64,000 nt of DNA from Eledone cirrhosa. Its lineage: Eukaryota. The translations under genes were made by a program, and so were the position numbers. The stretch is taken from assembly GCA_964016885.1 (NCBI GenBank), contig OZ024742.1, positions 67,518,001 through 67,582,000 on the forward strand, in the 5' to 3' direction. The notes beneath the pieces were generated by a model. It was not told where the DNA came from, made no database searches, and saw only the letters and a program-made list of their open reading frames with translations. Shown piece by piece: positions 21,786 to 57,700 of this stretch; the first letter of the stretch is position 1, and each line of letters opens with the position of its first letter.

Positions 21786-21897
21786 ACAGTTTCTGAAGAT
21801 CTGATCGAGCTAACATTGTATTTGAAATTGACTGGCACAGCTTCTAGTATTCAGCAATTTTTAGACAACCTTAACAGAGAAACAATTGTTAGACTGT
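21786..21897 (+). ncRNA. Type I hammerhead with 79-nt helix II region (left arm of palindrome)
   Basis: ACAGTTT CTGAAGA [TCTG...CAGA] GAAA CAATTG TT AGACTGT. Confidence 0.7.
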
Positions 21898-22022: not shown

Positions 22023-22134
22023 ACAGTCTAACAATTGTTTCTCTGATAAAGTTGTCTAGAAATTGCTGAATACTAGAAGCAGTGCCAATCAATTTCAAAT
22101 ACCATGTTAGCTCGATCAGATCTTCAGAAACTGT
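22023..22134 (-). ncRNA. Type I hammerhead with 79-nt helix II region (right arm; sense to the PLE ORF)
   Basis: ACAGTTT CTGAAGA [TCTGAT...ATCAGA] GAAA CAATTG TT AGACTGT; 7-bp helix I including one G-U, 6-bp helix II base. Confidence 0.75.
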
Positions 22135-23461
22135 TACAAAAAATATATACGCCTATAACCTATACAAGCAAATATACGTACGAGAAAGTATACGTACCTT
22201 CATAAAACATACAGGTAATATATACTTACCTATACAAATAAGTAATGGTATAAACATAACATATACTTAGCTACCACATGAAGACGTATAATCTCCGCGT
22301 ATAGTTCGTACTATCCGTTAGGGTATAATGTGGGGCAGTAATACAGGAAAGTTTTGTGCAATTTATGTTTACAAGCCGAAATTGCCTCAGATTGTTTGTT
22401 TGGCGTAGAGTATTTCCAGGGCTTCAGCGGCGCAGATGTCACATGGTCTTTTACGATCTAGCCCTAGCTAGGATCTACCAGTGTAACTTATATGTCGTGT
22501 GGTTGTCTTTTATACTCCAGATATAAGCTGAAAGTGACGTCATATTCCCTCTTAAAGGGTTAAGAAAAGAATGGGTATGCATGTAAAGACGCTGCTTGAA
22601 TCTATTGGCGGTTAACCCTGTGTAGGCCCTACGGGACGTGGGTGTTTCAACCTTACATTTGTAGACAATGTTACTAGAGAGTCATTTTCCAGATAGGGGG
22701 CAGCCAACCCGATTACTACAATTACAGTTAGTACTAGCTACAGGGTTTCACGTGTTCCTACGGCTATGTAATTTAGCTAAATTTGAAGCTGTGATATTAT
22801 GTGCAAGGTTAGGAGTCGTAGAGTAAGAAATGTTAATGGCATTTCTATTAAAAGATCTTAGCTAATGGTGTGGTCACCTCCATATTATATGGTGGGTTAT
22901 ACCATATAATGCGTCGGGATCTATTTTTCCTAGGTCTATAATCATACTCTGTATATGCTACCTTATCGACAAATCCACTCCGAGCAAGAGCTTCATTGTA
23001 ATATGTGGAATGGTCGGTGAAAATATGCTCGTTTGTAGATAGACGGAAAAGCCTCGAAGAAATGTTTCTTACCAGGTTTGCGTTGGCGTGCCTTTTATTT
23101 CGATAATCAGGGAAAAGCGGACTACAAACAGGATAAATTTGGGTTTAAAACCTACAATAACCCTCCGAGTAACCCGGCATTGCTACCCTTCGAAAATGAT
23201 GTCTCGGAACTCACACGGAGTATCAAATTTCGGAATAGGAGCAATTCCATCCAGCAGGACCTGAAGAATAGAATTCGTTCTATTAACGATTCTAATGCCG
23301 TAGATAGCTATCCTTATCGAGCCCTCTTTGGATTTTAGTCTTCAAATTTATTATTATTACTCTATATATATATATATATATATATATACATAAAGCGGTT
23401 GAAATAATAATCATTAGCAAAAATTTAAAGACATAATTTGTGCGACTCAACTAATATGATG

Positions 23462-36364: not shown

Positions 36365-37098
36365 AATAAGTACTCAATAAATATACGCATATACGCAGGC
36401 ACATAAAAACACCTCTACAGGCAGAAAATGTAGATAGGTAAGAGGTACTCACATAACCATAGTGGCCGTATTTCAGGTTGAGGAGGGGTGGGGGTAGGGT
36501 GGGAAGGAGGTATAGAGGCCAATAGGAGGAGGTCGTTTTTAGCCATCGTGCTTTAACACTGGCTTAAACTGTTTGAAAGTTGCAAAGTTCTTGTGCATGC
36601 AGTTCGGGCAGTGTTCAGAGAGTTTGTTCAGTAGCGGGCCCTTGGCGAATAAAATTTCGTAGCTCTCTGAAATACAAAGATCTCAGCCCTTGTTCCTCCG
36701 TTGTAAGAGCGCGCTTGCTGGAGTATTTTTCATTTAAGCGTGAAGGGGGTGGAGTTCCTTTTGAGGTCCTAAACATAGGAGGCGAGTGTTGTCTGGTTTG
36801 ATTTGTCCGGTCTTCTGAAGGAGTGGGTATGGGCATACCAACGGGTCTTAAAGTTGTTGGATGTCATGCCGATGTAAGTTTTTTTGCAATCATCGGTGCC
36901 TGAGATGACATCGCATTTGTATACGATATCATTTGTGAGGCATTTGTTTTCAAGTGGGCATGCTTCCTTATTTAGGCAATTACACAGAGCCCCTGTCCGC
37001 GGATTGGGTTCGTAGGTGGTTGGCTTATTTAATTTTTTAGAATTGTGGTTGGCTATATTCCTAGCTAGGTTAGGTGTGGTGGAGTAGGAGAGTCTTAT

Positions 37099-38347: not shown

Positions 38348-38354
38348 ATATATA

Positions 38355-40272
38355 TTGTTATACTTGGGGAGGGTCATATTTGTGTAATATTGCCAGAATT
38401 AATAACAGAACACACTCACTGTTTGGTTGGTTTTCGCTTCTCGCTGTCTTTTATATCTGCGATCTAACTTAATTGGTCCTCAATGTTGCCATTGACTGAC
38501 CGACGGTCAAAAATAATACAGATACAATATAGACACAGACACATATATATAGTTTACATAATTTACATAAATCTTTCGTTGCACATCTGCAACATCGTCA
38601 GTGGTGTTATATTTTTTCCTCCTGTTGTGTTGTATGTCTACGCCATTTTTTATTCAGTCTGTCTATATATTTATTTATTTATTTGCTTGTTTGTTTATTT
38701 TATTTTGTCTTCTTTGCGCATGCGTTTGCGTGTGTGTATAGTGTTGCGTTTGCTGTGTGACTAGTGTGACACTATACTAAACTTGTGTGACACTATGCTA
38801 AACCCATGGCCTCCAAATACCTGATACTCAAAAACTCAGCAATGTCCAGTAGTGCTAAGTTTAATATTCTGATCGCAGATTTGGTACGAGTGATGAAGAA
38901 TGTGTCCAGCATGTGCGACCCAACAGAAATGGAAAGACACATCCAACACTTCAACCGCATGCAGTTCTCTGGCTATAACCAAAGAGACAGAGTCAGAGTA
39001 TACGAAGGAGCCATGGAAAAGTATAAGACCCTCATAGAACTGGACATGAAAGGAATTTTCCCTTATACAGGAGCAAATCATGGAATAGCTTAGATAGGGC
39101 TAGATATAAGATAGGGAAGGCCACATCATGGTACGACAACCAGAGATATCAGAGTGTCATGTTTGTGGACGCCACTCCTGGAGGGAAATTAGCTAACCAG
39201 TGTAGAAAGGCCCTGAGAAAGACCCACTTAAAAATAAAGGTGGTAGAAAAGCCAGGAACCACCATAAAATCCCTGATCAGCAAAACCTACCCCTTTAAGA
39301 AAACCCACTGTACCAATAGGAAATGTATCATATGTAAGGTGAACACCCGGATAAACTGTAAAACTAGAAACGTAGTCTATATCATAATATGTACAGAGGG
39401 TACTTGCAGAAACATGACAACAACATACATAGGCGAAACAGCTCGTAGCATAGGTGAGAGGATAGACCAACACTGGGGGGAACTAAAAGGACGAAAAAAC
39501 GGGTCAGTTCTATACGAACATGCTAGACAACAACATTACGGTAACATAGACAACATAGAAATTAGAATAATATCTAAACATAGGAATGACCCAGCAGAGA
39601 GGCAAATCAGAGAGGCCAGTGAAATAGAAATTAGAAGACCAAAGCTAAACAGAAAGAATGAGTGGAACAACAACAACACCCAAACAAACAACACTGACCT
39701 AAGAGAAGTATAAATAAGTAACTAAAATAAAATAAAATAAGATAAATAAATACATACACAAGCAAATAACAACAAGCACATAAACACACACTAGTCACCC
39801 AGCAGACACAACACTATACACACTCGTCACACAGCAAACGCAACACTATACACACACGCAAACGCATGCGCAAAGAAGACAAAATAAAATAAACAAACAA
39901 GCAAATAAATAAATAAATATATAGACAGACTGAATAAAAAATGGCGTAGACATACAACACAACAGGAGGAAAAAATATAACACCACTGACGATGTTGCAG
40001 ATGTGCAATGAAAGATTTATGTAAATTATGTAAACTATATATATGTGTTTGTGTCTATATTGTATCTGTATTATTTTTGACCGTCGGTCAGTCAATGGCA
40101 ACATTGAGGACCGATTAAGTTAGATCGCAGATATAAAAGACAGCGAGAAGCGAAAACCAACCAAACAGTGAGTGTGTTCTGTTATTAATTCTGGCAATAT
40201 TACACAAATATGACCCTCCCCAAGTATAACAATATTTGTTTCGACACACGATTTCATATAAAAAACCTCGCT
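38355..40272 (+). mobile_element. 5'-truncated PLE with ~410 bp inverted pLTRs, inserted in (TA)n
   Basis: 38355-38762 is inverted at ~39826-40232. Internal frameshifted ORFs 38806-39093 (RT thumb, ..RMQFSGY..) and 39159-39713 (FVDATPGGKL, C/C/C linker, NVVY..C...YIGETARS..ER..QH GIY-YIG). Confidence 0.92.
39159..39713 (+). pseudogene. PLE linker + GIY-YIG endonuclease domain (fragment)
   Basis: VVY / YIGET / R / E / N motif order of GIY-YIG. Confidence 0.88.
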
Positions 40273-40572
40273 AAACTAATATATATATATATATAGACGT
40301 ACAGTAGTATGTATATATATACATACATGCACACATACATATATGCACGTATCGGTTTACCGAACATTTATTACAAACAATCAAACCGAGCATTAGAATA
40401 AATGTTCGGTATACCGATACGTGCATATATGTATGTGTGCATGTATGTATATATATACATACTACTGTATGTCTGTATACATATATGTATGTACGTATAC
40501 ATACATACATACTTACATTTAAGTAAGTGCCGTACTAAGAGTGAGAAATGAAATTTCGTTTCATTCTATTCC

Positions 40573-40642
<70 letters not shown>

Positions 40643-40789
40643 TATTTTCCGTTGTGTTGTAATATAAATATTACACACAGTAGATTATCAGCTCACGTAG
40701 AGTTTGCTCGACGGTTCCAGTTATAGTTCCAAAAGTAATCCGGAGAAAAATAGAAAGGTTTGAATGGATACAGTTTAGTTGAAAGGAAT

Positions 40790-40909
40790 TTATTGACACG
40801 TGTTTCTATAACAGTTACATAACCTAAAACAGCTGCTATCTACAAACTTTTAGTTATGCAGACATTCAATATTTCAATGTTATTATTTACTGTTATTTCA
40901 TCAGAATAA
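40790..40909 (-). ncRNA. Type I hammerhead with 91-nt helix II region (inverted pLTR)
   Basis: Reverse complement of 43448-43567. Confidence 0.75.
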
Positions 40910-41097
40910 TATTACTGAGGACCTATTTAGTTTTTATAGAGAATATTAGGAGGGAGGGGTGAAGTTGTTAGAAGAATAGTTGAAGGAGTGGTTTTTCGAT
41001 AGCAGTGAGAATTCTTGGTGGCAGTGAGTAATTAGATTCCCATCTGTTGTTTTGACATTTTTTATAGAATATATTATTGGTTATTTTTCTAAATCTA

Positions 41098-42554
41098 TTC
41101 TAATTATATTAGAAGCTAGGAAAACTATAGTCAAATTTGAGAACAGTTATTGGGTACGTAAAGATAGACCCTCTAACTTTGACATAACAATGGGCACTAA
41201 CGATTCGGCGGAAATAACTGATATTGTGGGGTTATTTATCGCCTTTAGACTCCAGGAAAAATTCAGCAATCTCCACGGCGGAATATACCGCGACGATGTT
41301 CTCCTCCTAGCTAAAAACCTTAATAACCAAAAACTAGAAAAACTACGCAAAGATATAAGAAAACTACTACTCGAAATAGGACTAACTATAACATATGAAT
41401 ACAACCTTAAAGTAGTTAACTTCCTGGATGTCACACTCAATTTAAACTCTGGTTTGATTAAACCGTTTCATAAATTGAATGAAAATCTCAAATACGTAAA
41501 TGTTGGGTCTAACCACCCCATCTCTATAATTAAATCTATCCCTAAAAATATTTCCCTTAGAATCTCGGGTCTATCTTCTAACATACAAGTATTTAAGGAA
41601 CACGCCGAGTACTACGATAACGCCCTTAGTAAAGCAGGCTACCTCAACAAAATAGAGTACATAGATGGGAACAATCAAAACACCCAAAATAAATCCCACA
41701 TAGGTAGATATAATAACACAACACCAAACCACACTTACTACCATAGTATGCACACCAGTAAACCAACAAACAAAACTAATAGAAAGCGATGCAAAGAGTA
41801 CTTATGGTATAACCCCGAATACAATAGTTCCATTAGTACAAATTTACCAGTACTCTTCTTTAAAATAATTAAAAGACATTTTCCTACATCACACAAATAC
41901 CACAAAATCCTAAACCCTACCACTATAAGACTGTCATACTCTACAGCGTTAAACCTTGAACAAAACATAAAAAAGATCAATACTAGAAGGTTAAACGAAA
42001 ACACTAAAAACTTAAGTACAAAGAACACAAAAAAAACAGTAGACAATACACTACAGAACATAAATAAACCACACCTAAGTTCGTCCGCAATACTACTCCA
42101 GAGAAAACCCAACGTACACAACTGTAACTGCACCTATCCTGACAACTGCCCCCTCGGCAATAACTGCCTGGAAAAAAATATTATTTATAAGTGTACCATT
42201 AAATCCGGAGGCAACGAGTGGTATTACGTGGGATCAACGGCAACATCGTTTAAATCTCGATTGTATAGGCATTCTTACTCAATAAAACACCATAGCCAAA
42301 GAAATGTAACAACTTTAGCAGAAAAAGCTTGGACGCTCAGGGATAGCGATCAAAAGTTTACCCTAAAATGGGAGAAATTAGCTAAAACCCAAAGCTTTTC
42401 CAGGAGCCAAAATTTCTGCAAATTGTGTAATCTTGAGATTTATTACATAATCACACACAAGAAGAAACTGCTGAATAACAGAATTGAACGAACATTATTC
42501 TGCCGTCACAGAACTAAAACCCTTTTTTCCCACTACAAGCCGAATATTACATAA
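41098..42554 (+). CDS. PLE polyprotein, C-terminal part (RT domains 4-7, thumb, GIY-YIG); uninterrupted but 5'-truncated
   Basis: FDITMGTNDSAEITDIVG, IYRDD, VNFLDVTL, SNHP, CNC....CPL...CL..NIIYKC, YVGST..FK.R...H..S, CKLC..E, CRH. The ORF-track start (41052) lies inside the inverted pLTR and is not a real start. Confidence 0.93.
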
Positions 42555-42821
42555 AAGAGGGACATCCCCCAACTATATAAACCTTAATCTAGTTAGAAAA
42601 ATATAAAAACAATCTCTTCTCAACATATATTAATAACCTTAAATTACCACACTAATAATGGAAAGATATGCTGATGAGAATAGGTGCAAATATGCGATAA
42701 TGAATATGTCTAAAAACGTCCATAAGTATGTATATATATGTGAAAATGTATATAAATAAGTAAATATATATATATGTTTGATGTGTATAGTTAGATGTAA
42801 GTGTATTCATGTATTAAAGTG

Positions 42822-42883
<62 letters not shown>

Positions 42884-43447
42884 GTATGTATATATGTGTA
42901 TATAGATGTGTATGTATGTGTATGTGTGTACACATGGACTAGAGTATGTATGTATATATGTGTGTGTCTATACGTGTGTATATAAAGATAAGTTGAGTAT
43001 GAAAATGTATACACATGAGCGCGTATGTATGTACATGAATACATGTGTGTATATATATGTGTATGCATGTGTATATATATGTTAGTATGAATATGTGAAT
43101 TGTGAGTATATGTATTTTGTAGAGGTGTGCAAATATATTTGTGTGTGAATGCGTGGGTGAAAGGATACGTACACTTGAAAGAAAAATTTAAGCCTGAATG
43201 TTAATTAAGTGCAAACACAAAACCAACCACGCATATCTTTACTATCGCTAATCCTTCTATAGATTTAGAAAAATAACCAATAATATATTCTATAAAAAAT
43301 GTCAAAACAACAGATAGGAATCTAATTACTCACTGCCACCAAGAATTCTCACTGCTATCGAAAAACCACTCCTTCAACTATTCTTCTAACAACTTCACCC
43401 CTCCCTCCTAATATTCACTATAAAAACTAAATAGGTCCTCAGTAATA

Positions 43448-43567
43448 TTATTCTGATGAAATAACAGTAAATAATAACATTGAAATATTGAATGTCTGCA
43501 TAACTAAAAGTTTGTAGATAGCAGCTGTTTTAGGTTATGTAACTGTTATAGAAACACGTGTCAATAA
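43448..43567 (+). ncRNA. Type I hammerhead with 91-nt helix II region (3' pLTR, sense to ORF)
   Basis: TTATT CTGATGA [A ATAACAGT...ACTGTTAT A] GAAA CACGTG TC AATAA; predicted cleavage after 43562 (GUC). Confidence 0.8.
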
Positions 43568-43601
43568 ATTCCTTTCAACTAAACTGTATCCATTCAAACC
43601 T

Positions 43602-43726
<125 letters not shown>

Positions 43727-46624: not shown

Positions 46625-49600
46625 TTTCTTTATTAACCACAAGGGTTTACATAAAGTACACATTAAGGACAGTGCAGGACAATACAGGACGGTACAAATG
46701 GGCATTTCTGCGTGTAAAAAACAAAAACAAAAACAGAGGGTGTAACAAAAAATAACCCTGACCACCAAGGCAAGTGCCCTCTCCAAGTTTTCCACCTTTA
46801 ATTTAGAGATATATACTCAGAGTAGGCCCATTTACTCGGGCCATTCTTGCTTCTCTCACCCATCTTTCAACAAAATGCTGGGAAGAGAGAACTTCCCTCT
46901 CTACTCTGATTTTCCTTTTCAAATGAAATTTGAAAAAGTCAATCAGAGCATCACCGAAGAGGTAAGTGCTCGTCTTCAGCCCTTTCAAACGTGTCCACCA
47001 TACTATCTCTTTCGCCATGGCCACCAGACAGATAAAAACTGCCTGCCCTTCCCGGCTAAAGGAGGAGGGCGGGGCAATCCTCACGATGGACTCAGCTGAT
47101 AGCTGGATCCGTCCTAAACGCGACAGCAGGTGTTCGACATAAACCCACAAGTCAGCAATTTTCGGACACTGAACGAGTGCGTGCAGGACGGTTTCGTCGC
47201 CCTGCGCGCATCTCGGACATGCCCGGCTGACGGCACCTCCATGCCTGTAGAGTTTATCCCGAACTGGCAAGGCTCCTCGGTAGCACTGCCAGGCCAGAGA
47301 TTTCTGGAAGTTGTCCATAGGCCCTGGCCCGAAAGTTCATCCGAAGAGATTGGCTAGATGATTTTCGTCAACGCCTAGAGTTTCCCCAAGTACGTCGTCG
47401 CTCTTCCCCTCCACTAATCCTCTATAGAACGCCGAGGTGGAGTTTCCACCGATCACATTGCCCGATTGGTCGAGGCCTGAGAGCGCCTGAAGACATTCCA
47501 GTCTCCAGGCGCTCCCTCTCGGTCTTCGCTTGACCCAGGACTGCAGCTCCGTCAAGGAAACGAGCTGGGGAAATACGTGTCTAGCAAACGGCGACCACAC
47601 CTGATCACCGTCGAGGAAGAGGTGGAGATGTCGTAGCCTGAGCGCGTGCCTGCGCATCATCAGCCACGGCATGCCCAGCCCTCCACGTAGCGGGTGTTGA
47701 CAACAGATGGACCGCCTGACCATAGGAGCGCGTCCCTTCCACAAAAAGCGAAAGAGCAAACGCTCCAGCGCAGTCAGGCGACGCTTAGGACAAGCTACGA
47801 CGGTCAGGCGGTAGCAGTTGACAGACGCGATGTACGCGTTAGCCACCTCCGCTCGACCTTTCAGGGATAGCTTCCTCTCCGCCCATTTCTGGGTGAGAGA
47901 AGCCACCCTGCTCGTCACCTCGTCCCAGTTTTTGTCCGTCTGGGGGTCCGGACCGAACCAGACCCCTAGCAATTTAACCGGTCCGTCCGTCCAGCGTCCG
48001 ACGACGCTGTTGGACGGCATGGACCTGCCTCTCCAGGTGCCGAGCTGCAGGCCCACTGACTTTTCCTGGTTGATCATTGCTCCTGTCACCGCTTCGTATT
48101 CTCTTAGTGTAGTGCCGATCGCCTCGATGTGTTTGGCGTTCGACACCACTACGGTGACATCGTTCGCATATGCTGACACGGATCTTCCGCATCCTAGTTC
48201 GCGCGGGACGCCCCTCAACGTCTCCAGTTTGTGCAGTAATGGCTCGAGAGTCAATACGTACAAGAGGGACGAGAGGGGACATCCTTGGTGGACCGAGCGC
48301 ATGATGTTGAACGGTTCCGACAGGTGACCGTTCACTCTCGCCACAGAGCAGATGTCGCTGTGCATGGCAGCGATCCAGCCTCTGAAGACGGGCCCAAAGC
48401 GAGCCGCCCTCAGGACTGCCGCCAGGTAACGATGGTCGACCCTATCGAAAGCTTTTGACTGATCTAAATTGATCAAGGACCCACCCGTGCCAGGTTCCTT
48501 AGCTACCCTCTCTACGATGTATCGCATGAGCTGGAGCTTGTCGTGGATGGATCTGTCGGGAATGGCGCATGTCTGCGCCTCTCCCACCAGTCCACCAACG
48601 ACAAGCGCCAACCTCTTTGCTAGCACCTTGGCCAAAATCTTGAACTCTGTGTTTAGCAGAGTTATGGGCCGGAAATTATCTATGTTATCGCCCTTGTTCG
48701 GATCCTTTCTCAGCAGTGCCACCGCTCCTCGGCTCACAGAACTGGGAATTCTCCCGTTCTGTTGCCAGTTGCAGTAGACGTCCGCCAAGAGGCCTCCGAA
48801 CAAGTCTGGCATCTGTACGTAAAGTTCATAGGGCAGACCATCCAAACCAGGCGATTTACCCCTTGTGCAGCCAGTCATTGTCTCCCTTACTTTAGCGGCT
48901 GTTATCGGCTTTTCGCAACACTTCGCCTCAGTCGCCGAGAGCCGCGGCAGTCCGTCGAGGTAGACACTAAAGTCCATCCCTCGACCCGGCCTACCGCTGC
49001 CCCCGAACAGCTGAGCGAAGTGTCGCTGAAAAGCTTCACACATTTTCCCGGGATCGAGTAGCATGCGCCCGTCGTGATCCACCAAAGACCGGATCGTGGC
49101 TTTGTTGCCACGACGCGCCTCCGCAACTCGGGCTCATTGAACGGCTTTCGTCCCCTCGTGTCTGAGAGCACGCACCCTTGCTCTGACAACGCAGCCTTCG
49201 TGCTTTGCATTGAAGAATTGGTCAAGGGCCAATTTTGCCGCAAGCACGTCGGTCGCAATGCCTTTGCTATGCGCCTCGTCTAATTTTCTAACTAGTTCTT
49301 CCTCTGCTCTATTTTTCTCTATTGCTAAAGCCTTACTAAACCTAATGGATTCTATTCTAATCGCTCTTTTCAGAGCAAACCACCATTTGTTGTTGACGAT
49401 GGCCCCCGTCAACGCCCGCTTAACTAGTTCGCTAATCCGGTCTCTGTAGGCCTTGCGCGCTGGTAAGGACGCGTTTAGCTTCCAGTAGCCGGGTCCTCGT
49501 CTATGAAGCCTATCTAAGTCAAGCACACAGATCACGAATTTGTGGTCCGTGTAGCTGACTATATTGAATTGTGGACAGCCTATGCTAGACCTATCTATTT

Positions 49601-52580
49601 CCCTACAAAATACTCTATCTAGATATGATCTGGATGACCCTATGCGATTTGTCCAAGTCCACATTGGTACATTCGGGAAATCCAATCGGTACCTGTCAGA
49701 CAGTTCAAAACGCCTGAGCAGGTTGGTGAGGCTCTTGCACCCTCCACCCCTATCCGCTAATCCCACACAGTCCCAGCGTGCATCTAAGATCCCGTTCCAG
49801 TCGCCCACTAACACTAAAGAGCGGGACGTTCCAAGAAAGGTCTCCAGACGCCGGAAGAATCAGGCCGCCCTGCTCCTGTCGGGGCATAGACGGCCACTAG
49901 CCTGAAAGCTTGCCCGTGTCCGCTGGTCACGTCCAGCACCACCAGCTTACCCTCTGGGTCCAGGAAGATGGCCCGTATGGCGAGATCCAAACCTCTCCGA
50001 AAAAGCACAGCAACTCCTCCCCCCGATCCAGGACGGCTGGGAGATGGGTACACATCGTAGCTGCCGAAGATCGGTGCGAAGGCTCGTGCTTCGGAGATTC
50101 TGATCTCGCTGATGGCCACTACATCTATGTTTAGTGGCCTGAGGTCGTTGAGCAGCTGACCCTGCTTCCATGACGACCCCAAGCCACGCGCATTTATGCT
50201 GCCTATTCTGAGTGAGGTCATGTTTAAAATAGAGTGGAAAAGATGGGAAAGACCTCTTACCGTACTTTTCGTAGAGGAGGGATGGTTTTTACATCCCTTT
50301 TCACTTGATCGTCTGGTGAAGGGACCGTTGAATCGTCCCTTCGGCTGGTTCTTGGCTCTTCTATGAGTATGTCTGAATATACTCTTCGATTGATAGTTCC
50401 TCCTAGGTCCCTGAAATCACCAACTGCGTTGGGGAATTTCGTTTTAATGTTTGTGTATTGTTTCTGTGCTATTTTTAGCAGTCTTATGTTAGTTGGCGTT
50501 TTGATTGGTGCTGGTATTATGTAGTCGTGTTGTGAAATGTCTGTGTGTTCAATTATGTAAGTCATTAGTTTCTTGTTGTGTGTATTTATTGCCGTGCATT
50601 TGTTTTTCTGGGGGTGGGGTGTGGTTCTGCTATTTTCTTGTCGTTGTTGCTGGGTGTGTGTGTTTTGTTATTGTGTTTGCGATGTTGGTGCTTGTGGTGG
50701 TGGTGTTGAAGGTGTTGTTGGCGCTGGGGTTTTCGCCGGTGGTGATGGTGGTGCTAGTGTGGGTGGTGATGGTGTTGGGGGTGTTGCTGCTGTGAGTCAC
50801 TTTGCAGTAAACTTTACCCTTTTCTCATTTCTTTCCTCCCTTTTCAAAGGCGACGATGCGCTGATTCTGCGTTTGTGCCTTCTTACGACCTTTTGCCATC
50901 CCTCTCCCACCTCACACTCCATGTCTGATTCTGTGAGGTCGGGGAGGGGTACCAGCTCCACTCTTTCACTTGTTGTTGTTGGTGATGTTTGCACTGGAGT
51001 CTCTGTTGCAGCTGCATTTGGTATTGCTGTTGTTGTTGTTAATATTTCCACTGCTGCTGCTGTTTTTGATTTCCGTGGCGTGGGTATGGGTGCCACGGAC
51101 CTATCATTCCTGGTTGCCGCTTGTCCTGTTGCTGGTAGCTGTGGAACCGGTTTCGGAAGGAGGGGGGGGTTTCTCCTTTCTCAGGGTCTTCTCGTTGCAG
51201 AAGGCCCTGAGGTGAGTCTTCTATCCACAGCGAAAGCATTTCGGGCGTTTGCCCTCAACACTTATGGGCAGTTGAGTGCCGTTATCGAAGTCTATCACAT
51301 CCGGGATAGCTTCGATGCACTCCTGGTTGGTTTGGATTAGCATCTCAATGGAGGTGCCGACTCAATCTTCTCTTACTTTTTCTGTACTTGCAGTACAGTT
51401 GTTTTGTCCTCGATTCCGACGAGGACAGACGCGGCCAGCCCAGAAGGGGCCATCCCGGGGGAGGACGTGGGTTAGTTTGACCCTCACAATTTTTTGCCCG
51501 CAGTAGGAGGGCGCCAACACCATTTCCTCGCTCCTTAGGGTCACTACGGATTGAGCCTTTGCCTCCTGGGGTGTGGCAAAAAAGTACGTCTACGGTGGCA
51601 TAGTTTTTGCCTCAGGTGATGTGCGTTTTCCGCTGCCACACAGACCCCAAGGCTTTTTGTATCTGAGCCTCTGTGGCTCTTTCAACCCTACGGGATTTTG
51701 TACTTACTGTACGGTACGTGACCGTACAGTGCTGTTGGGTTTCGAAAAAAATTTCCGCTGCCTTGCAGATTGCTCGGTGTCCAGTCTTTGTCACCATCTT
51801 TTTCGCTTCCTCTAATTCCTCATTTGTTATGAGGATTGTTTCCAGGTTCTTCGCAATACCCGCAGTTTAGATTGGTTTTTCTTTGCTGCTGTTGTTGTTG
51901 TTGCCGTCAGAGCTGCTGTTACTTTTGTTGTTGCTGCAGGTACTACGACTACTGCCTCCGCCGCTGTTGCTGTGGTTGTTGTTGGTGTTGCTGCTGCTAA
52001 TGCTGTTGTTGTTTATGCTGCTGGTGATGCTGTTGCGGCTGCTACTGTTGTTTTCATTGTCACTGTTGCTGTTGTTATTACGGCTGCTACTGCTATTATT
52101 CCTGACGTCAGACGAATGAAATGGGTTTTCGTATTTCCCGCACACCTGTTTCGTCGTTGTCGTCGTCGTCGTGGAGAAATCTTGCACGCTTTGCACGAGA
52201 CTTTTCTTTTCTGTCGTCGCTTGCGAAAGAGAAGGGAGGGAGAGAGACACATTTAAAGAAGGGAGGGAGAGAGACAATCTTCTCTCTGCTGTAGTGATGA
52301 TTGAGGAAGAAGAAGACGGAATGAGTGGGAGTGACCTATGAAAATTCTTTTTCGTAGCCATGTTGTTTTTTTTTTTGTTTAAAATAAATATTGGGCACAA
52401 AACCCCAATAAGCAGTCATTTAACCCCGAAGGGCCAAATAACGGGCAGAAAGACCCCTCTCACGAGGAGGAGGGTGTTTTTGTCTACAAGTTCGTTAATG
52501 TTTTAAACAATTTACAATTGTTATAGCGCTCAAAATTTACAATACTTTACAGAGCCGAGCCTCCGTCAAACATAGCATTC
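46589..52580 (-). mobile_element. Near full-length Tx1-like (L1-group) LINE, inactivated
   Basis: ORF1 (~52361-50257, broken) has a Ser/Asn-rich region and a zinc knuckle CFRCG*KTHLRAFC at ~51195-51240. ORF2 50221-46803 is in four frameshifted pieces. 3' tail (TTA)n; the 5' boundary is approximate. Confidence 0.92.
46803..50221 (-). pseudogene. Tx1-like ORF2: APE endonuclease + RT + C-terminal CCHC finger
   Basis: SINARGL, VYAP, GDWN, SYLDRVF, TDH (APE); KSPGLDG, FRPITLLN, DQSKAFDRVDH, QGCPLS, AYAND (RT, YADD mutated); CPRC...ETVLHALVQC. Frameshifts near 49860, 49100 and 47330. Confidence 0.95.
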
Positions 52581-52614
<34 letters not shown>

Positions 52615-54499
52615 TTAACAATGAAGATATAAAAATATAAAATAAACTATGCATAAATATAACAAAATAAATTCCCCGATAGGGGTTGGACGACCCTGGC
52701 GTGACTCGGGTACCCCACCAATCCTGAACCACCCCCGATGGACCGATCGGGAGAGCCGAAATGGTTCCGAGAGGTGGCCATTAAACTTGACCACCGAGCG
52801 TGTGCCTCTATGCATTACAGCGATCTAGCTTCTGAAGACAGGGCCGAAGCCAGCTGCTTTGAGGACAAACTCCAGATTCCGATGGTAGACCCTGTCTATG
52901 ATGTATCACATGAGGTGGATACTGTCGTGTATGGACCTGGCTGGGATTGCGCAAGTTTGCGCCTCCCCAACCAAATCCTCGACGACAAGCGCCAATCTCT
53001 TTGCTAACACCTTGGCCAAAATCTTAAACTCTGTGCTGAGCAGAGTTATGGGCCTGATGTTGTCTAATTTATCCCTCTTGTTCTCGTCTTTCCTTATCAG
53101 CGTCACCAATCCCCTGCTTACAGAACTGGGAATACTCCCATTCTGCTGCCAGTTGCAGTAGAGTGCTTCGAGGAGATCGAAGAACAGGTCTGGCATATTT
53201 ACGTAAAGCTCGTAGGGCAGGCCACCCAAACCGGGTGACTTGCCCCTCATGAAGCCGACAAGGGCGTCCTGAATTTCGGCTGAAGTAATCGGCTTTTCGC
53301 AGCGCTCAGCGTCGACCGTAGAGATGCGCGGTAAGCCGTCAAGGTACGGACTGAAATCCGCTACTCTCTCTGACTCGCCACTCTTCCCGGACAACCGAGC
53401 AAAGTGCTGGCGAAAGGCCTACCACATACGCTTGGAATCGCTTATCTCGTGTCCGTCTCGGTTCGCCAAAGACCGAATTGTGGTTTTATTACCACGCTGC
53501 GCCTCCGCCACGCGGGCCATCGAACAGCTTTGGTTCCCTCGTTTCTCTGACAATGCAACCTTCGTGTTTCGCATTGAAGAAATGGTCCAATGCCATTCTC
53601 GTCGCTAGCACGCCAGTTGCAATGCCACTACAAATAGCCTCGTCTAACTTATCTACCAGCTCCCCCTCCTTTCTATTTTTCTCTAACGCTTGTTCTTTGC
53701 TGAACTCTATCGAAGTTACTCTAATCTCTCCTTTGAGAGCCCCCGACCATCTGTTGTTGATGATCCCCCCTGTCAACTTTTGCTTAACTAAATTGTTGAC
53801 TCGGTCCCTGTAAGCCTTACGTGTCGGAAATGACATGTTCAGCTTCCAGTAACCCGGTTCTAACCTACGCGTTTTATCGAGGTAGACCGTACAGATCACA
53901 AATTTGTGTTCTGAATAGGCGACCGTTTTAAGACGTGGGGAGCCCACACTATTTCTATCTATTTTCCTAATGAAGATCCTGTCTATATACGATCTAGATG
54001 ACCCCATTCGGTTGGTCCATGTCCATACTGGCACATTGGGGAAATCTAGTCGATACCTGTCAGACAGTTGGAACAGGCTGAGTAAGTGCTTGAGGCTTTT
54101 GCACCCTCCGCTCCTATCGGCTACTCCCACACAATCCCAGCGTGCGTCTAAAATGCCATTCCAGTCCCCCGCTAACAGTAAAGGGCGAGACGTAACCAGA
54201 AAGGTCTCCAGGCGCCTAAAGAAGTCCGGTCGTCCGGCCCCAGTAGGGGCGTAGACGGCCAGCAGTCTAAAAGCACCACCTTCGCTACTGCTCACATCCA
54301 AGACTACCAACTTACCGTCTGATAGTCGTCGAAAATGGGGGCTAGTGCGCGCGTGTCGGAAATGCTGGTCTCACTGACGGCAATCACATCAATTTCCAGC
54401 AACCTGAGATCGTTGAGCAGGCGACCCTACTTCCAGGGTGACCCCAGGCCGCGAACATTTAAACTTCCTACTCTTAATATGGCCATGTTGGTAAGCTAA

Positions 54500-54500
<1 letters not shown>
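52581..54500 (-). mobile_element. Second, diverged Tx1-like copy; starts just before the ORF2 ATG, with large internal deletions
   Basis: MAILRVGSLNVRGL from 54486; APE and RT N-terminal fragments (53489-54310, 52906-53394, NGHLSEPFRLSRSVHRG) jump to a 3' UTR and (TTA)n tail at 52581-52612. Confidence 0.9.
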
Positions 54501-54556
<56 letters not shown>

Positions 54557-54719
54557 GGGATTGTGTGGGAGTAGCCGATAGGAGCGGAGGGTGCAAAAGC
54601 CTCAAGCACTTACTCAGCCAGTTCCAACTGTCTGACAGGTATCGACTAGATTTCCCCAATGTGCCAGTATGGACATGGACCAACCGAATGGGGTCATCTA
54701 GATCGTATATAGACAGGAA

Positions 54720-57700
54720 TACTCCTACTGTTGGCCCTCCATGCTCACCACCAAGAAATCCAAAGAAAAAGAGAGAAAAATGGTCAAGGGAAGATAATAA
54801 AGGAGTCCTTGAGGCTTTCTACACTGCCATGTACAAATACATCGAATACAGAACAGACATATATCAACTGGAAAAAGAAACATCCCGAAAACAGAGGCTA
54901 TATTGACAGTAACAAACTAGCCAATATACGAAGAAATATTGTAAGAAAAAAGTTACTAACTGATATAGAAATTGATCAGATCAAGCTATTAGCACAAAGT
55001 CAGCGAAGGGAAAATGAAACATGTGTCAGTGAAAACGAGGTAAACTGTAACACTTCGAATCCCAGGGTTGGGGCGGAATCACTGGCAACAGAACAAATTA
55101 AAGAAAGGATCGAAAAAGTGGAGGGAGTGCATGCTCAGGATGAAACTCCAAATGAAAATAATGAGATCGTAAATGATAAAGAAATGAATGATAATGAACT
55201 TGCCAACTTGAAGGATGAAATTATGATCGAATGGATGAAAATGAAAGAATCTGACATGGGGCAACGAGACACCCTCCCTAAGATCCAGAACTCCAAACAG
55301 AACCAAAAGATAATACACAAGACTAACATAATTCTCAAAAACATTATCATCACAAACAAACTAAACATTACTGATTTAAATGATCTCTATTATGCATCGG
55401 CTAAAGTCACCACTCACTTATGTGGAGTGAAGATGAAAAAACAAAGGAATGCCCACAAGAAATCTACTTGGCAAGAGAACATCAATCGCCAAATAAACCT
55501 TCTCCGATCTGACATAGAAATTTTAACAAACTATAAAGTAGGTGAACATGTTAAACAAACTAAACTTAGAAAATTGAAAAAAAAGTACAGTATAAAATCA
55601 ACATGTGACATAGACATGCTGATAGAAATAATCAAGCAAAAAGTGTCGGCCAAAGCTGCTCGTATAAGGCGCTTTGAAAAACGATCTAGATTCTATAAGG
55701 ACAATAATATGTTCAAAAACAACCAAAGAAACTTCTACAGAAAAATTGGTAAGTCAACAATAACTGCTAAATCAATACCACCCAAGGAGGAAGTGCAAGA
55801 ATTCTGGGAAAAGATCTGGGCCGAAGAAAAAGTTCATAACATACATGCGCCATGGATAGACAGACAAATGAAAGATACAGCTCACCTTGAGGAACAAATA
55901 TGGGAAAATATAACAGTTGAACAGTTGCGCTTGGCTCTAAGAAAAACCAGCAAATGGAAATCCCCAGGAAAAGACAAAATACAGAACTTTTGGATAAATG
56001 CCTTCACAGAGTCTCATGAGCTGTTAGCCCAACTTTACAATGAAATAGTTAAGGAGCCAGAAAAGATACCATCATGGCTAGTTAACGGCATTACATTCCT
56101 GCTTCCGAAGAATGATGAGACAAACAATCCCAAAATTTACAGACCGATAACTTGCTTGACCACAATGTATAAAATGTTAACATCAGTCCTAACTGAATAC
56201 ACATATGACCACCTGATAACAAATGACCTATTTCCCATTGAGCAGAAAGGGTGTAAACGAGGCTCATATGGCTGTAAGGATCAGCTTCTGGTTAACAAAA
56301 TGATACTGGAAGATTGTCATAATAGACACAAAAATCTATCGATTGCTTGGATAGATTATAAAAAAGCATTCGATAGTTTGCCACACAGTTGGATTGAAAA
56401 ATGTTTAGAGATTTTCAAAATATCCCCCGTTGTCAGGAGTTTCTTGTCATTCAGTATGAAGACATGGAAAACGACACTCCTTTTGAATAGTGAAACAAAA
56501 TCACTGGAAGCTGGAGAAGTTAATATTAATTGTGGAATTTTTCAGGGTGACTCTTTATCACCGCTTTTATTCTGCATCGCACTTATACCATTAAGTAAAA
56601 TGCTCAATGAAACAAAACATGGATATAAAGTCTATGACAAAACCATTAATCACCTGTTCTACATGGATGACATGAAACTATTTGCAAAAAATGATGAACA
56701 ATTGCAAGGGCTATTATCCACTGTGAAGCAGTTCAGTGATGACATTAAAATGGAGTTTGGACTAGATAAATGCGCCAAAGCAACGTTCACCAGAGGAAAG
56801 CTGCTGAAGAGTTCAGACATTAATCTTGACCGGGGGAACGTGATAAGAGAACTTGATCAAGAAAAAACTTGCAAATATCTAGGTGTTTATGAAGGAGACG
56901 GAATCAAACACTTGACAATGAGGGAAAGGATAAGGAAGAAATGTTACCGCAGAGTAAGAGCAATCTTAAGAACGGAATTGAATGCAAGGAATAGGATCGA
57001 TGCCATAAACACGCTTGCCATACCAGTAGTAACCTACAGTTACAATGTCATCAACTGGTCAAGCACAGAGATCCGTAGGCTCGATACAAAAATTCGAAAT
57101 TTCTTAAACATGCACAGAATGCATCACCCTAAGGCAGATATAGATAGAATATATCTCCCTAGGAAAGAAGGAGGACGTGGGTTAATCCAGTTAGACATTG
57201 CGTTGAAAACTGCAACAATTGGATTATCTACATATCTAAGGGAATCACATGATTGGATGATCAAACTCGTTTTGAAACACGAAAGCATCAAAAGATCATA
57301 TTCCATTACAAAAGATGCACAAAGATACAGTAATGGACTACAAATTTCAGAAGTCCCATTTACTGCTGAAATGGAAAATACAGAAAAAGCAAAGCAGGTA
57401 AAAGTAACTGCAAAGAAAGAACTGTACAGAAACTGGCTAAGAAATGGCAAGAAAAGCCTCTGTATGGAAAATACCCAGAGCGAGCTAACAATCCTGATGT
57501 TGACAAAACTTTAACCCATCAGTGGTTGGCATCCTCTGAACTGAAATCGGAGACTGAAGGACTGATTATATCGGCACAAGATCAGTGTCTGCCAACAAAA
57601 AATTACCAAGCCAACATAATAAAAAATGGGTGCAGCCCATTATGCCGTGTATACAAAAAACAACCAGAGACCATTGACCATATAATTTCAATGTGCAGTC

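Follow-up and report, generated by a model that had tools for sequence, protein, structure and literature searches.

A hammerhead motif with a long, probably unbranched helix II in a young family of Penelope-like elements assigned by protein motifs to the Hydra clade

The role of hammerheads in endonuclease-bearing Penelope-like elements (PLEs) is an open question according to Craig et al. (2021, PMC8557442). In that account, the Hydra clade is marked by an RT followed by a GIY-YIG endonuclease, RWK and DKT motifs, CxCx5C, CxxC/CxH, the lack of CCHH, and (TA)n targets, and Naiads by an N-terminal endonuclease and no canonical hammerhead. Metazoan PLE hammerheads are described in Cervera and de la Pena (2014, PMC4209133) and PMC6765202 as cleaving poorly and as dimers. 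The ribozyme of PAc, a Poseidon element of the green anole, is reported by Frangione et al. (2024, PMC11167929) to cleave only with protein, uncut RNA being the main template. Hammerheads in Hydra pLTRs, helices III of the dimer type, and tails are already known.

The window, i.e., the whole stretch of DNA analysed, comprises 64,000 nucleotides from Eledone cirrhosa, an animal with a genome of 3.0 Gb. The open frame of its PLE copy (Table 1), which is fused to an inverted arm, corresponded to residues 289-773 of P0001, the 773-aa protein of the full unit L046, with 98.8% identity; full units carry 785-codon stop-to-stop frames. Because only these residues are covered and the frame is joined to the inverted arm, the element copy at 41097-43607 is 5'-truncated, and the uninterrupted RT-GIY-YIG frame claimed in the earlier note exists for the 3' part and not for the whole protein. 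The two 349-nt arms differed at 2 sites, and the 120-nt hammerhead was, as had been read before, the exact reverse complement of that in the inverted arm. Both ends of the insertion lay in (TA)n, as did most 3' flanks among the family loci listed. A protein search for longer forms gave no scoring match; in Pfam, P0001 matched no family and the window frame had only a weak unrelated match. Elsewhere in the window we observed a third Hydra endonuclease remnant (36560-37095, -), three more hammerhead-like cores (21386, 7271, and 30363, all +), one with a 50-nt insert, and RVT_1 plus AP-endonuclease matches of LINE-type elements at 47337-49859 (-) and 53489-57514. The neighbouring Penelope-like copy at 38352-40275 may, by its motifs, be of the Neptune or Nematis type.

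Table 1. Features of the window (A4, alignment of sister-family hammerheads; R1, model built from the sister families)
Feature	Position	Strand	Details or evidence
Type I hammerhead motif with 91-nt helix II domain	43448-43567	+	sequence; R1 score 30.3 bits
Helix I, 5' strand, 5 A-U pairs	43448-43452	+	partner 43563-43567; TTATT/AATAA
Catalytic core CUGAUGA (CTGATGA)	43453-43459	+	sequence
Helix II domain with A·A (10.1-11.1), a basal helix of 8 bp, and a predicted unbranched irregular G·U-rich rod	43460-43550	+	folding; sister-family covariation
Conserved internal loop 1, 5' side (A·G + bulge, U-A)	43478-43481	+	partner 43532-43534; A4 columns 35-39/80-83; register from R1 alignment
Conserved internal loop 2, 5' side (G-C, A·G + bulge, U-A, G·U)	43490-43494	+	partner 43519-43522; A4 columns 47-51/69-72; MFE of the window motif
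GAAA (43551-43554), 8-nt palindromic helix III (43554-43561), C17	43551-43562	+	GTC 43560-43562; predicted cut after 43562
pLTR segment duplicated in inverted arm	43259-43607	+	45 nt beyond cut site, ends in (TA)n
5'-truncated Hydra-clade ORF, by motifs	41097-42554	+	RT motifs with YRDD, CxCx5C linker, GIY-YIG without CCHH, CxxC, CxH
3' untranslated part with microsatellite stretches	42555-43258	+	sequence
Inverted 5'-truncated copy	40641-41098	-	pLTR 40750-41098 + ~110-nt tail; end ~160 nt beyond its cut site, in (TA)n
Identical hammerhead of inverted arm	40790-40909	-	sequence
Neighbouring Penelope-like copy, another clade	38352-40275		inverted 417-nt arms; C-terminal GIY-YIG with cysteines inside core (39027-39713)
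Short hammerhead-like cores of neighbouring copy	39986; 38601	+; -	
Sister Hydra family hammerhead, 79-nt rod	22024-22133	-	R1 matches of 101.6 and 95.1 bits for it and its inverted copy
Inverted copy of the 79-nt-rod hammerhead	21787-21896	+	separate insertion from the window element

Judged by its protein motifs, the window element is a Hydra-clade PLE. In P0001 the RT precedes a C-terminal GIY-YIG (residues 652-667), accompanied by RWK (37), DKT (121), YRDD, CxCx5C (631), CxxC (729), and CxH (757); no Cys lies between YKCT (652) and YVG (665), and there is no CCHH. RWK and DKT have been lost from the truncated window copy, and CxCx5C, CxxC, and CxH are kept in its frame. Since P0001 has every published Hydra diagnostic, the element is assigned to Hydra rather than Naiad. 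The label "Naiad-type" of the earlier note had to be withdrawn: with Naiads, as described in PMC8557442, the family shares being Penelope-like, (TA)n targets, and tandem plus inverted layouts, but their N-terminal endonuclease, DKA, CCHH, and hammerhead absence are replaced here by a C-terminal GIY-YIG, DKT, no CCHH, and a canonical hammerhead core.

The motif has the type I hammerhead layout, with CUGANGA, GAAA, and UH in order around helices I-III and the open end at helix I. The canonical core, helix I, the 8-bp basal helix II (43461-43468/43542-43549), and the A·A at 10.1-11.1 (A43460 opposite A43550) were all confirmed. This supports the earlier reading of the motif as type I and as part of the pLTR of a Penelope-like element that is young. 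Its A·A takes the place of the R10.1-Y11.1 pair (usually G-C), which PMC3088659 treats as a usual, not an obligatory, hammerhead feature. The hammerhead descriptor score of 21 was equalled in 1 of 200 block-shuffled windows. Rfam gave no hammerhead match at the motif, searched in 12 kb and in 181 nt, and a natural family copy (L116) whose internal deletion removed most of the insert matched Hammerhead_1 (RF00163) at 21.9 bits (E 0.0023), under the gathering score of 34. Because Rfam also missed one canonical relative, its silence is not evidence against the window hammerhead. A second hammerhead-like core at 42671-42724 was rejected, as it showed no fold (z 0.24) and its motif was altered in older subfamilies.

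Segment 43460-43551 folded as one irregular hairpin of -26.7 kcal/mol (z -4.84), and none of 200 shuffles was equally stable. All 2000 sampled folds of the insert were unbranched, at 37, 20, and 15°C, and for every one of 28 distinct family variants, 466 or more of 500 folds were unbranched. At the level of secondary-structure modelling, the window hammerhead has no short loop 2. The antisense strand folded at only -11.9 kcal/mol, versus -26.7 for the sense strand. Within 43463-43533, the predicted fold of the rod has no A·C but six G·U pairs, one more in the family form, and the antisense strand folds much worse; this G·U richness may reflect either selection acting on the sense RNA or A-to-G editing that became fixed. 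At 43454-43549, contigs from run X1 carried 12 T>C sites, 11 of them absent from the list for run X2, which is from the same organism. X1 is a different sample, and if it were RNA the sites would fit A-to-I editing of antisense RNA, which we regard as a weak hint.

Long-insert hammerheads were sought genome-wide by a pattern with 55-105-nt inserts, which gave 5,325 matches, versus 5 for the control. Sister families were sampled from the first 30 matches and from 20 picked by eye for resemblance among the first 100. Alignment A4 holds 29 of the 35 sequences sharing a TAGAC word, five near-duplicate inverted partners and one unrelated row having been dropped; Hydra ORF pieces occurred in the fetched flank of 11 of the 29. 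In these 29 sequences, 88.6% of rod cells were paired and 8 of 17 rod pairs had two-sided changes. None of 500 shuffles reached the covariation score, although this significance is overstated because the sequences are related. Core columns were fixed by the search pattern, whereas helix I columns were not, and helix I covaried as well (4 of 5 pairs two-sided). The helix III palindrome is perfect in the sister families too. No standard pair was found at 10.1-11.1 in 25 of the 29, with A·A in 11.

The sister rods hold two nearly fixed internal loops, both made of an A·G with a single bulged base and a U-A after it. The window rod carries both, as did 1 of 5000 shuffles under a descriptor written post hoc, after the window rod had been seen; the same descriptor misses the related L302/L305 family and 4 of the 29 training rows. 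Model R1, built from sister families alone, without the window family, scored the window motif with an E value of 5e-4, part of the score coming from the core. It gave 28-36 bits for the window family, 45 for L302/L305, and 15-26 for other hammerheads, and CYK alignment to it placed window loop 2 in a shifted register. By sequence comparison, the window rod is likely homologous to the sister rod, and helix II of the window family is predicted to be one unbranched rod common to the sister families. A second Hydra-type element in the window also showed a palindromic helix III, with a GUU site, ORF remnants at 22454-23332, and an inverted arrangement.

With published Hydra hammerheads, as given in PMC8557442, the family shares the type I fold near the 3' end, a short self-complementary helix III, the inverted 5'-truncated copy, the protein motifs, and the (TA)n targets; U·U at 10.1-11.1 is frequent in that set (File S2). 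It differs in helix II, which in the published cases has a stem of 3-7 bp and loops of 3-10 nt and here is a 91-nt domain with two conserved internal loops, and in unit length (3.6 kb versus under ~3 kb). The window family is not the Hydra-1_Obim listed there, whose hammerhead and N-terminus differ on comparison by eye. Among 77 Hydra-type loci from metagenomes, 48 had a hammerhead, and all 48 inserts were 10-25 nt, in a scan that allowed ~155 nt; their 10.1-11.1 position was U·U in 23 and A·A in none. The Hydra rows seen in File S2 agree with short inserts, and that file lists two non-Hydra PLE motifs with 29-35-nt loops II. The minimal or dimeric PLE hammerheads of PMC4209133 and PMC6765202 likewise are type I, with a short helix I, a larger helix II, a palindromic helix III, and a pLTR location, and dimer cleavage and a circular template were proposed there too. 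Their helix II is 6-8 bp and conserves G10.1-C11.1, whereas the window family is without this pair and its rod is several times longer. In the literature consulted, we found no description of a helix II this long with conserved internal loops; Lunse et al. 2016 and supplements, including that of PMC4209133, may hold long-stem cases.

The window family is young and present in high copy number. Genome-wide, the young subfamily (purine before GAAA) gave 2,365 matches and the older one (pyrimidine before GAAA) 388, each against 0 for the reversed control, a few matches belonging to other families. Among loci L003-L058, the best matches, 77 alignments averaged 98.8% identity to the window pLTR. In the older copies examined, helix II is 10 bp long and A-U stands at 10.1-11.1; the changes they share in this helix swap Watson-Crick and G·U pairs. 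A43463 is private to the window locus (2 of 84 copies examined, both from that locus), the family having G. In the window copy, the two hammerheads are antisense to each other, no second same-strand hammerhead exists at the locus, and the 349-nt arms of a read-through transcript are predicted to pair with each other. This copy had been proposed as the best candidate for an active ribozyme on the strength of its sense orientation to an uninterrupted frame and of its identical arms. That identity marks one young insertion among thousands, and helix III is of the palindromic dimer type with no same-strand partner. Because the copy is 5'-truncated, one of 2,365 young ones, and bears antisense hammerheads on arms predicted to pair, it is a poor candidate for activity and likely a passive product of the element family.

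Other Hydra families were scanned for hammerheads at 60 loci with a strict descriptor over ~1.5 kb. Two of the 60 loci passed, more were seen by inspection, and most loci had none within ~1.5 kb. We observed 60-61-nt inserts downstream of a Hydra endonuclease at L226-L228 and L234, and 47-nt inserts at L090 and L108, in both cases without a match to the double-loop descriptor. In the 3' part of a further Hydra family (L196-L225), a CUGAGGA core stands ~550-650 nt beyond the endonuclease; none of the family's 30 loci held a hammerhead passing the descriptor, and this core could be a decayed or rearranged motif.

Taken together, we put at about two in three the probability that the window motif is a type I hammerhead, sited in the pLTR of a young Hydra-clade PLE of high copy number, that its helix II is an unbranched ~90-nt rod conserved in sister families, and that it cleaves weakly and needs a dimer partner or the element's protein to do so. 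With nearest-neighbour terms only, the monomer hammerhead folded at -22.2, the rod alone at -26.7, and the two-molecule hammerhead at -59.5 kcal/mol, which favours the dimer; the helix III palindrome forms a self-duplex of -10.3 kcal/mol. The family has the palindromic 8-nt helix III and the tandem copies of the dimer type, the window locus itself being without a tandem. Among loci chosen for long frames, full units stood head to tail, for example in L044-L047, L049, L052, L056, and L057; the unit in L046 is 3,587 nt, and its cut site lies 209 nt before the start codon. Since full 3.6-kb units lie head to tail, a read-through RNA would carry two hammerheads. If their palindromes joined as a helix III of 8 bp, the RNA could be cut after GUC, and a unit-length RNA would be released.

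Genomic copy ends were examined for traces of such cutting. Past the cut site, 3' ends fell near +45 in 26 of 52 copies and near +160 in 13, the other 13 running on, and no young copy diverged within 12 nt after 43558. Junction or indel matches numbered 99 around the cut site and 146 at an upstream control, so there was no enrichment at the cut site; indels are part of each count, and older copies are picked up by the anchor of the control as well. On visual inspection, four of the 99 matches began exactly at 43563, larger clusters lying at TA-like microhomologies, and in a script-scored subset of 30 of the 99 none did. Copies made from cut RNA were thus not found, and genomic ends and junctions give no sign of cutting. 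Reverse transcription would start 45 or 160 nt past the cut site and run through it. Given that copies do not end at the cut site and that 5' junctions show no excess at it, the copied template was likely uncut or re-ligated, both of which fit the data. Some inverted insertions, at L290/L291 and in similar junction matches, fold back exactly at the helix III palindrome, which suggests template switching at this self-complementary word.

PAc (PMC11167929) likewise has a tail delimited by two start sites of reverse transcription, copies that run through the hammerhead site, and AT-rich targets. It belongs to a different clade, its tail is 30-40 nt versus ~115 nt, its hammerhead overlaps the start codon whereas that of the window family lies upstream of it, and it was assayed in vitro, the window family being known here from sequence alone.

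A rather unlikely alternative to weak, conditional cleavage is that the hammerhead no longer cleaves at all, that the family spreads from uncut RNA, and that motif and rod are a structural or protein-binding element or a relic. The lack of genomic ends at the cut site is consistent with it, as is a helix I of only 5 A-U pairs whose pair probability in the monomer is ~0.04; PAc catalytic mutants, too, still insert in vitro (PMC11167929). Furthermore, in the youngest subfamily, which is also the largest, A·A replaces the A-U of the older ones, and yet it outnumbers them sixfold, which fits relaxed function. However, the core, the palindromic helix III, and a helix I with two-sided changes have been kept across divergent families. 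Moreover, as the standard 10.1-11.1 pair is lacking in most sister sequences and U·U is common in the metagenome relatives, the A·A mismatch is not a sign of recent decay.

We consider it improbable that the monomer cleaves efficiently, with the long rod supplying the tertiary contact with helix I that loop 2 makes in canonical type I hammerheads. The intact core, the conserved internal loops, and a helix III of 2 bp closed by a tetraloop, a form described for invertebrate retrozymes as the more stable type, would suit such cleavage. Nevertheless, the monomer hammerhead fold lies 4.5 kcal/mol above the rod alone, the palindrome of helix III is perfect in the window and sister families alike, and efficient cutting should leave copies starting or ending at the site, which are not enriched.

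The multibranch, cloverleaf-like helix II of the earlier note, in which the insert opens into three hairpins, has hardly any probability left, although its short complementary words exist and variation inside the young family does not contradict them: the junction folds at -13.7 kcal/mol, 13 less stable than the rod, acatt/aatgt and atag/ctgt have a pair probability of 0.00, and the equivalents of hairpins 1 and 3 are paired in only 67% and 26% of the sister alignment. Of the proposed words, ctgca/tgtag and the aact/agtt tip do form, inside the single rod, and acatt/aatgt and atag/ctgt do not; atagc/gctgt as written would leave a 1-nt loop. The C-G pair of the aact/agtt tip is present in only 7 of 28 family variants, and a 3-nt deletion in 22 of 84 copies falls within the proposed third hairpin. 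Within-family covariation (rod 96.5%, cloverleaf 94.5% of cells paired) exceeded shuffles for neither structure, and the window family by itself therefore cannot separate the two.

Branching is predicted in a different abundant family of the genome (L295, L296, L303, L310-L312, L322, L324; around 1495-1620), whose 93-97-nt insert was modelled as a three-way junction, with 0 of 300 folds unbranched for L295 and L310. In L311/L312, two of its copies share a strand at a distance of ~990 nt, and a search of 1.5 kb around the family revealed no Hydra ORF. By modelling, a multibranch helix II is more plausible in this family than in the window hammerhead.

As to the preferred reading, that of an unbranched rod and weak, conditional cleavage, the single window copy is ordinary, and the long conserved rod is a family-level feature. 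The two conserved A·G/bulge loops are most likely, judging from conservation alone, a protein-binding or tertiary docking surface standing in for the loop 1-loop 2 contact, and the covarying rod, with both internal loops fixed, marks out a specific surface for mutagenesis. The young family keeps its 773-aa frames intact, numbers thousands of copies that are nearly identical, and includes natural variants with rod deletions or with A-U in place of A·A; it thus offers a ready construct series for dimer or protein dependence. Long inserts also hide hammerheads from Rfam. We further propose, tentatively and with the odds against it, that Hydra-clade elements of this host have added the conserved rod to helix II as an accessory domain, whose two repeated A·G/bulge loops lie one helix segment apart and which binds the element's RT-endonuclease, so that the protein gates cleavage and perhaps template choice. 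If true, the genome would hold, in thousands of copies missed by Rfam, a hammerhead that is naturally gated by a protein through a defined binding arm.
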